From Escherichia coli (lineage in GTDB: Bacteria; Pseudomonadota; Gammaproteobacteria; Enterobacterales; Enterobacteriaceae): 64,000 nucleotides of DNA. Every line of letters begins with the position of its first letter. Position 1 is the first letter of the stretch. The translations under genes were made by a program, and so were the position numbers. This document shows, piece after piece, positions 37,016 through 38,033 of the stretch. The DNA is taken from NCBI RefSeq assembly GCF_016026235.1, contig NZ_CP065613.1; one strand, 5' to 3'. Below the pieces are notes generated by a model. That model did no database searches, was not told the DNA's origin, and was given only the letters and a program-made list of their open reading frames with translations.

Positions 37016-37309
37016 TCAAATATCACCTGATGTAATGTCAATGATAATATTAAGTGCGCTCTGAACAACATCTTTCTTGGTGTGATTAACATCTGACAAA
37101 AAGAACATCAGCTTCTTTATTATGTTCTTGTTGTTTATTATTTCACGCTCACAGAATAAAGCGTTGACTGCCTCTTCTATGACATTTCTCTCGTAAAAAA
37201 ATTGAGAGTTAGCTTCATATAAAATATTGGCCAATTTTTCACCAAAAACCATATTATAATAATCACTGTGCATCTTTCTCCCCCAGGGTTCAGTCAATAA
37301 TTTTACCAT
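37016..37309 (-). CDS. Hypothetical 97-aa protein (orphan ORF in the AT-rich islet between two IS1 copies)
   Basis: ORF MVKLLTEPWGRKMHSDYYNMVFGEKLANILYEANSQFFYERNVIEEAVNALFCEREIINNKNIIKKLMFFLSDVNHTKKDVVQSALNIIIDITSGDI; no family recognised; weak ribosome-binding site; coding status uncertain. Confidence 0.3.
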   Translation of the reverse strand: MVKLLTEPWGRKMHSDYYNMVFGEKLANILYEANSQFFYERNVIEEAVNALFCEREIINNKNIIKKLMFFLSDVNHTKKDVVQSALNIIIDITSGDI

Positions 37310-38033
37310 GCCTAATTATGACAGGTGTAACAAGCATATTTTGCTATATAAATAAAATACATAATACTGATTATTGTAAGAACAGGAAGCAGACTAATGG
37401 TTTTTTTTGTGAGCACATTCCTTCTTATGTAGGAAGAGGCTGTATTATATTCAGTCAACTCTTTTTTACTAAAAACATTATCTATGCCATCAAAGTTGCC
37501 TGCTAGCTAATTTTTAGGATATCGCCTTGTCGTGGATTATGCACTCTAAACATGTAGAAGGTATTCATTATAAATACACAGACGGCCATCTTTTGTAAAA
37601 TGGATGCCGTTTTAAGTGAGATTCTGATTTTCAAATTGTTCCGGACTGAGACCGCCACACCAACTGTACCATCGCCAGCGATTGTAATCGCACTCGATAT
37701 AATTAAGTAAGTTTGCTGATTTTGCTGTTTACTGCGACAGATGTAAAGCTGTGGTGATTCATGCAGACTAAGTTCACGGACTCCGGCAGTAACACCGATG
37801 CATTCTGCAAGCTTCAGATCTTAACTACGAAATTCATGCGAATGGTGTTTACGTTTTTTTACTGGTTGAAACTGTTTTGTCTTGTGAGTCACCTCTGACT
37901 GAGAGTTTACTCACTTAGCCGCGTGTCCACTATTGCTGGGTAAGATCACAACACTTTAAAATGCCCTATATAGGGTTAACCAGTAATTATCTGTATGATA
38001 GCTTTGAGTTCGGGAGGAGGTAATGACTCCAAC

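Follow-up and report, generated by a model that had tools for sequence, protein, structure and literature searches.

The window analysed here, a stretch of 64,000 nucleotides of Escherichia coli DNA, contains a small AT-rich islet upstream of the fec iron-citrate genes, enclosed by two direct IS1 copies. The islet has a G+C content of 36%, in comparison with about 50-57% in its flanks. A truncated fimD lies on one side of it and ykiE-fecIRA on the other: fimH, fimG, fimF and the IS1-cut fimD are found to the left, and ykiE followed by fecI-fecR-fecA to the right. The features of the locus are as follows.

36214..36981, minus strand: left IS1, 768 bp, with intact insA/insB'; left border of the islet, truncating fimD
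36982..38018: the islet, between the two direct IS1 copies
37016..37273, minus strand: predicted AriR/YmgB-family gene, probably 85 aa from Met13 (RefSeq form: 97 aa, to 37309)
37274..37524, minus strand: upstream region that travels with the AriR-like gene, delimited by homology with a plasmid variant of 87% identity
37416..37435, minus strand: conserved palindrome TTCCT-N8-AGGAA followed by an A8 run, within a block at 37398..37445
37506..37820, minus strand: 105-codon stop-free frame, a composite and not a gene
37595..37706, minus strand: right end of an IS3 copy (IS3 nt 1134-1245: orfB tail and inner right inverted repeat), from blastn
37612..37716, minus strand: last 34 codons of orfB, from Pfam rve_2 and NCBIfam transpos_IS3
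37711..37948, minus strand: left end of the IS3 copy (IS3 nt 1-238: left inverted repeat and 5' third of orfA), from blastn
37949..38018: spacer of 70 bp between the IS3 left end and the right IS1, in which RefSeq has only a hypothetical ORF of 20 aa
38019..38786, minus strand: right IS1; right border of the islet, followed by ykiE and fecI
38818..38886, minus strand: ykiE, an intact gene for a small protein of 22 aa, between the right IS1 and fecI as in K-12

The left IS1 is a direct repeat of the sequence that begins at 38019, with a spacing of 1805 nt. Both the InsA and the InsB ORFs are present in it, and its RefSeq equivalent is annotated as an IS1 transposase with a programmed frameshift. 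The right IS1 is 90% identical to the left one across the first 300 nt. Its insB frame is split into ORFs of 97 aa and 69 aa, which RefSeq describes as 'IS1 family transposase; internal stop'. Of fimD (35014..36213), the gene for the type 1 fimbrial usher, no more than the C-terminal 382 codons are left. The exact fimD::IS1 junction (36213/36214) is contiguous in none of the 5426 complete E. coli genomes, and the window may accordingly have its origin in Shigella or in an unusual lineage. The 9 bp outside the left IS1 (cgaataacg) do not match the 9 bp outside the right IS1 (gaaatcccc); there is therefore no sign of clean IS1-composite transposition, and the islet as an IS1 composite transposon was rejected on account of these unequal outer flanks.

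The islet itself is widespread. At 99-100% identity, it is carried by 1655-1696 of the 5426 complete E. coli genomes (~31%), and in both genomes inspected for its position, B19429 and the B strain BLR(DE3), it sits at the equivalent place relative to fec. The B strains BL21 and REL606 have the identical islet too. In addition, 49 plasmids, which come without exception from Escherichia, Salmonella or Shigella, carry the part of the islet that bears the AriR-like ORF; the three ORF-bearing plasmids whose typing was inspected are of the IncF type. Two smaller ORFs in the islet, one of 62 aa on the plus strand (37318..37506) and one of 48 aa on the minus strand (37312..37458), overlap 28 bp that are absent from the 87% plasmid variant; they are not conserved in this variant and were rejected as genes. 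An RNA gene was rejected as well, the only match in an Rfam scan of the islet (E ≤ 1) being a ctRNA at 25 bits, below the gathering score of 45. Short stretches at 37525..37594 and 37949..38018 flank the IS3 copy, and a small palindrome, gccctatatagggt, is located in the latter.

A sequence-only reading of this DNA had placed an ORF of 97 aa at 37016..37309 on the minus strand and had assigned it to no recognisable family. The ORF is found exactly there, but the second statement is wrong: the 97-aa ORF passes the cut-off of Pfam family PF10798, YmgB (26.7 bits versus 22.3, E 4.9e-6), with a match that spans ORF residues 40-96 and profile positions 2-59 of 59. The crystal structure of YmgB (PDB 2OXL) was also matched by sequence search, with an E value of 0.0016. 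In a BLASTP alignment with K-12 AriR, the protein exhibits 30% identity over 83 residues, both C-termini are reached, and the motifs NNKNII and a C-terminal T-x-x-D are common to the two. Its AlphaFold2 model is all-helical, with five helices and a pLDDT of 79.9, and the best Foldseek match of the model is 2oxl_A (probability 1.00, target TM-score 0.88, rmsd 1.1 Å, 59 columns), a match that is not fully independent of the sequence match because AriR itself was in the alignment used for structure prediction. RefSeq names the protein (WP_000239862.1) a 'biofilm development regulator YmgB/AriR family protein', and the exact protein is present on at least 998 contigs. Judged by its sequence and its predicted fold together, the 97-aa ORF is a member of the YmgB/AriR family.

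The annotated start of this gene is probably 12 codons too far upstream, with Met13 as the true start. The 12-codon N-terminal extension of the annotated form is not conserved; in the 87% plasmid variant, the two ATGs are in different frames because 1 nt has been lost between them, and the alignment with P0061, a paralogue of 46% identity, begins at Met13. The ATG at 37273 is preceded, 4 nt upstream, by GGGGGAG. With the start at Met13, the gene therefore most likely comprises 37016..37273 and encodes 85 aa.

The other recognizable content of the islet is an IS3 copy, which was delimited by blastn against K-12-type IS3. The left end is identical to K-12-type IS3 at 214 of 241 positions (89%), the first 66 nt without any difference, and the right end at 94 of 112 (84%). 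These two pieces are joined through 4 nt, and 895 bp between them (nt 239-1133) have been lost. The greater part of orfA and all of orfB except its tail went with this deletion; neither the frameshift site nor any of the catalytic core is left. What remains of the orfB tail still matches Pfam rve_2 (E 2e-7, 31.4 bits versus a cut-off of 22) and NCBIfam transpos_IS3, the latter at profile positions 344-369 of 369, i.e., its last 26. In the left piece, the start codon of orfA has changed from ATG to AAG (37881..37883), 1-nt and 2-nt deletions have occurred, and a GAA codon has become a premature TAA (37821..37823). A functional orfA/orfB pair with programmed frameshift is thus absent, only damaged orfA codons ~1-58 and 34 orfB codons being left. 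The left inverted repeat is intact and identical to that of IS3, the right one is partial, with a final 13 nt that cannot be aligned, and a comparison of the target duplications gave caa versus cag. On identical DNA elsewhere, RefSeq annotates an 'IS3 family transposase, incomplete, missing N-terminus' together with a frameshifted hypothetical pseudogene.

Because it has no transposase, because the 13 nt of its right end are not alignable and because it is single-copy per genome, the remnant cannot move. Its alignment identifies it as what is left of a dead IS3-family member, not as a miniature element that is still mobile. Besides the internal sequence, it has lost the start codon of orfA and the outer tip of the right end. 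The 66 nt at 37883..37948, from the left inverted repeat to the start of orfA, are identical to active IS3, as compared with 84-89% identity in the remainder of the remnant; the remnant may have decayed unevenly, or a live IS3 copy may have converted this part.

The remnant also accounts for an open frame that had been described upstream of the 97-aa ORF as a stretch of roughly 105 codons, at about 37480..37800 on the minus strand, with no stop codon and no plausible start. The frame has exactly 105 codons and its translation agrees with the string reported earlier; the strand was given correctly, whereas the position was roughly 20 nt off, the frame lying at 37506..37820. The absence of a plausible start was borne out too: the earliest ATG, GTG or TTG is a GTG at 37658, which gives an ORF of 51 aa (37503..37658), and the upstream 54 codons are for this reason start-less. 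That so long a stretch would be unusual for AT-rich DNA holds only mildly, since about 6% of simulated islets contain one. In 2000 first-order Markov simulations that kept the composition of the islet, 6.8% of the simulated islets, or 5.6% for 37310..38022 alone, contained a stop-free run of 105 codons or more.

The frame begins directly after the premature TAA in the left piece of IS3. Its first ~36 codons are the 5' part of the orfA frame, and residues 2-37 are 81% identical to residues 24-58 of IS3 InsE. Below 37706, it crosses the orfB tail in a frame other than that of orfB, and at 37594 it enters non-IS DNA; the last ~30 codons (about 90 bp) lie outside the IS3-aligned part. The orfA frame thus crosses the deletion joint, continues out of frame into the orfB tail and ends in the flank, and it very probably codes for nothing. 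As far as the alignment goes, about one third of the 105 codons is the legacy of a real gene, and the remainder is open by chance. Whether the frame is the 3' end of a longer gene had been raised as a question; it is instead the 5' part of orfA followed by an out-of-frame orfB tail and flank, and no full-length gene was seen elsewhere whose 3' end fits 37506..37820 better than IS3. To call it a decayed accessory gene was correct in the general sense that genes have decayed here, but these are the transposase genes of IS3 and neither a toxin gene nor an accessory one.

It is very unlikely that translation of the frame, or of its 51-aa part from the GTG, yields a novel small protein that arose from remains of IS elements. 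The length of the stop-free stretch does exceed expectation somewhat (P about 0.06), and a GTG start is at hand at 37658. However, scans of the frame against Pfam, NCBIfam and PADLOC gave no match to any family, the region past the GTG consists of out-of-frame orfB tail and non-IS flank, the RefSeq annotation pipeline makes no call for the frame, a promoter-like match of 9 of 12 positions at 37747..37719 is no better than in shuffled sequence, and the frame is without a diverged homologue to compare for coding constraint.

The layout of the two frames had also led to the suggestion of an orphan toxin C-terminus/immunity pair, in which the start-less frame would be the C-terminus of a polymorphic toxin and the 97-aa ORF the immunity protein. 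The arrangement, in which a small AT-rich ORF lies downstream of a truncated frame of like orientation, is indeed what such a pair looks like, but the contents of the frames leave this reading with a negligible probability. The upstream frame is derived from IS3 orfA and an out-of-frame orfB tail and matches no toxin or defence family in Pfam, NCBIfam or PADLOC, and the downstream ORF is a YmgB/AriR-family protein. Neither frame matches a toxin or immunity family in Pfam and NCBIfam; two weak PADLOC matches of the 97-aa ORF, to BrxC and a type II restriction enzyme at ~12 bits, were taken as noise. Between the stop of the frame and the start of the ORF there are ~230 bp that include the IS end and the ORF's own upstream DNA, and in plasmid variants a Tn3-family fragment precedes the ORF instead. 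Since the 97-aa ORF occurs elsewhere without the IS3 remnant, the two frames are not a functional pair, and the IS3 alignment refutes the toxin/immunity assignment.

In our reading, the islet is very probably a scrap of horizontally acquired DNA that was caught between IS1 copies and holds two unrelated things. These are an intact AriR/YmgB-family gene with ~250 bp of its own upstream DNA, and the dead IS3 copy. We have high confidence in the identification of these parts. Both the AriR-like ORF and the IS3 remnant are already annotated in RefSeq copies of the same DNA, and the finding is in this respect an ordinary one.

The upstream region of the AriR-like gene contains a further conserved element. 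Homology between the 87% plasmid variant and the window extends from 36984, at the IS1 boundary, to 37524 and then ends. Within this region, a block of ~45 nt containing the palindrome lies some 130-170 nt upstream of the gene, and the same block is found upstream of the 46% paralogue (5821-5862 of contig L014). The A-run after the palindrome is A8 in the window; most carrier genomes match with a stretch that is 1 nt longer and probably have A9. In the E. coli genomes searched, the palindrome occurs only together with the islet, and it is absent from the upstream region of K-12 ycgZ. A canonical RcsAB box (TAAGA-N4-TCCTA) was not seen by eye in the palindrome block. A sigma-70 promoter scan returned no site better than in shuffled sequence, and no terminator was found. 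The conservation of the block hints at a regulatory feature.

The relatives of the AriR-like protein are few. Three lineages were all that came out of a single-sequence search of 1.84 billion representative proteins and a profile search of 5.8 billion. They are at 100%, 87% and 46% identity, come from E. coli, Salmonella or Shigella, and are located in IS-rich DNA or on plasmids; many of the matches are frameshift artefacts. Canonical AriR, YmgA and YcgZ were not reached by these large searches and were compared directly instead. The 87% variant is encoded at 2443-2700 on IncFII-type contigs (L005/L006), between a Tn3-family transposase and IS1 fragments, and a GNAT/TacA toxin-antitoxin pair, a ParE-type pair and IncFII repA are located nearby. 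The gene of P0061, the 46% paralogue, is at 6001-6261 on the IncF plasmids CP076275 and CP076277 (L014/L015), in the company of genes for a polysaccharide deacetylase, an SMR transporter, a DUF535/VirK protein, PmrD and a glycosyltransferase, a neighbourhood that looks like an envelope-modification cluster. These two plasmids carry both P0061 and the 87% variant.

Comparison with the distant lineage and with the near one gives different pictures of selection. P0061 also carries PF10798. Against it, pN is 0.35 and pS 0.86, the synonymous sites being saturated, and both ORF length and Pfam match have been kept; by this measure, the AriR-like protein is constrained over the long range. Against the 87% variant, dN/dS is 0.76 and 12 of 15 substitutions are nonsynonymous (p = 1.0), which is indistinguishable from neutral, and conservation is no higher in the ORF than in the DNA upstream of it. 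This comparison therefore gives no evidence of recent constraint. The population also contains alleles with a frameshift or a truncated 5' end; P0028, an allele truncated by Tn3, is on 3 contigs, and its 90% cluster has 620 members, among them the exact 97-aa protein.

The main rival reading sees the AriR-like ORF as a hitch-hiking relic without present function, which would have stayed open only because the whole islet would be young and would spread with IS1 and the fec island. Its neutral-like dN/dS, the equal conservation of the non-coding upstream DNA and the circulation of broken alleles would all fit, as would the facts that K-12 does without the islet, that the ORF is always embedded in IS debris and that no promoter consensus stood out from shuffled sequence. 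We nevertheless consider it rather unlikely. Three lineages, the most distant at 46% identity, have kept the ORF intact, and pN is only 0.35 at a pS of 0.86 in the most distant comparison; the ORF is still above the Pfam cut-off and has an AriR-like predicted fold; the upstream non-coding block has been kept even in the 46% paralogue; and the exact allele is on at least 998 contigs.

What the product of the gene would do can be approached through K-12. The AriR/YmgB protein of K-12 is small and cytoplasmic, and it exerts its effects by binding to other proteins. By analogy, the AriR-like product would be helical and cytoplasmic and would act through contacts with proteins only. AriR has been described as a connector that turns on the Rcs phosphorelay via the cytoplasmic portion of RcsC/RcsD; to activate Rcs, YmgB requires neither RcsF nor the periplasmic domain of RcsC, and the RcsD mutation T411A blocks this activation (PMC11709261). 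YmgB also binds SpoT, and its R74G substitution abolishes the binding of SpoT and not the activation of Rcs (PMC10704370). Dimerisation and, upon expression, activation of the Rcs phosphorelay count among the traits of the YmgB/AriR family. AriR reportedly acts as a complex with its partners from the ycgZ-ymgA-ariR-ymgC operon (PMC11709261).

On this analogy, the AriR-like protein would most likely be a small helical connector that binds host signalling proteins such as those of the Rcs phosphorelay. The position of AriR R74 is occupied by Gln71 in the 85-aa protein; the 87% variant has Gln as well, and P0061 has Arg. With Gln in place of R74, control of SpoT is less likely, and the protein may, as a tentative assignment that we put somewhat below an even chance, be an Rcs-type connector without SpoT activity. 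The operon partners ycgZ, ymgA and ymgC are missing beside the AriR-like gene and, as the identity to AriR is only 30%, the partner proteins may differ. A bolder version, which we find unlikely, is that of a mobile connector, a horizontally transferred small protein. It would be carried by modules with IS1 at their borders, by IncF plasmids and by the fec island, and would feed into the Rcs envelope-stress phosphorelay or another sensor of its host. The palindrome at 37416..37435 would, as part of the same unlikely version, be the dedicated control site of this connector.

A divergent, mobile AriR paralogue is thus present in ~31% of complete E. coli genomes, B strains included, and a literature search on the islet paralogue found no paper on it. 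Should the protein modulate Rcs or stringent signalling, biofilm and capsule regulation would have an input that varies between strains and is easily overlooked. If the mobile connector exists, a mobile element could reset the capsule, biofilm or acid-resistance programmes in about one third of E. coli strains.

The locus can be compared with three known systems. The first is IS3 (insE/insF). The remnant resembles it in the 66 identical nt at the left end, in its identity of 89% over 238 nt and of 84% in the orfB tail, and in an orfA reading frame that can still be recognized. It differs by the 895-bp deletion and by the damage to the start and the frame of orfA.

The second is the fec island of K-12, in which IS1F is followed by ykiE and fecIRABCDE. 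The right IS1, ykiE and fecIRA have the same order in the window. At the position that matches the right IS1, K-12 has IS1F with the pseudogene insB7, so that insB is defective in both. In contrast to the window, K-12 lacks the islet and its IS1F directly abuts yjhU; in the window, a second IS1 bounds the islet and cuts fimD.

The third is AriR (YmgB) of K-12 itself. The two proteins are similar in size (88 aa in K-12, 85 aa here), in their helical fold and in an alignment that runs from end to end. They are unlike in that the identity is low (30%) and in that the SpoT-contact residue R74 is Gln in the AriR-like protein. AriR belongs to the ycgZ-ymgA-ariR-ymgC operon beside bluR/bluF, whereas the AriR-like gene stands alone, between IS1 and the IS3 remnant and also on IncF plasmids, with an upstream region unrelated to the ycgZ promoter. 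The operon location of K-12 does not apply to it; this location is a trait of the K-12 orthologue and not of the Pfam family PF10798, to which, by sequence and predicted fold, the AriR-like protein belongs.
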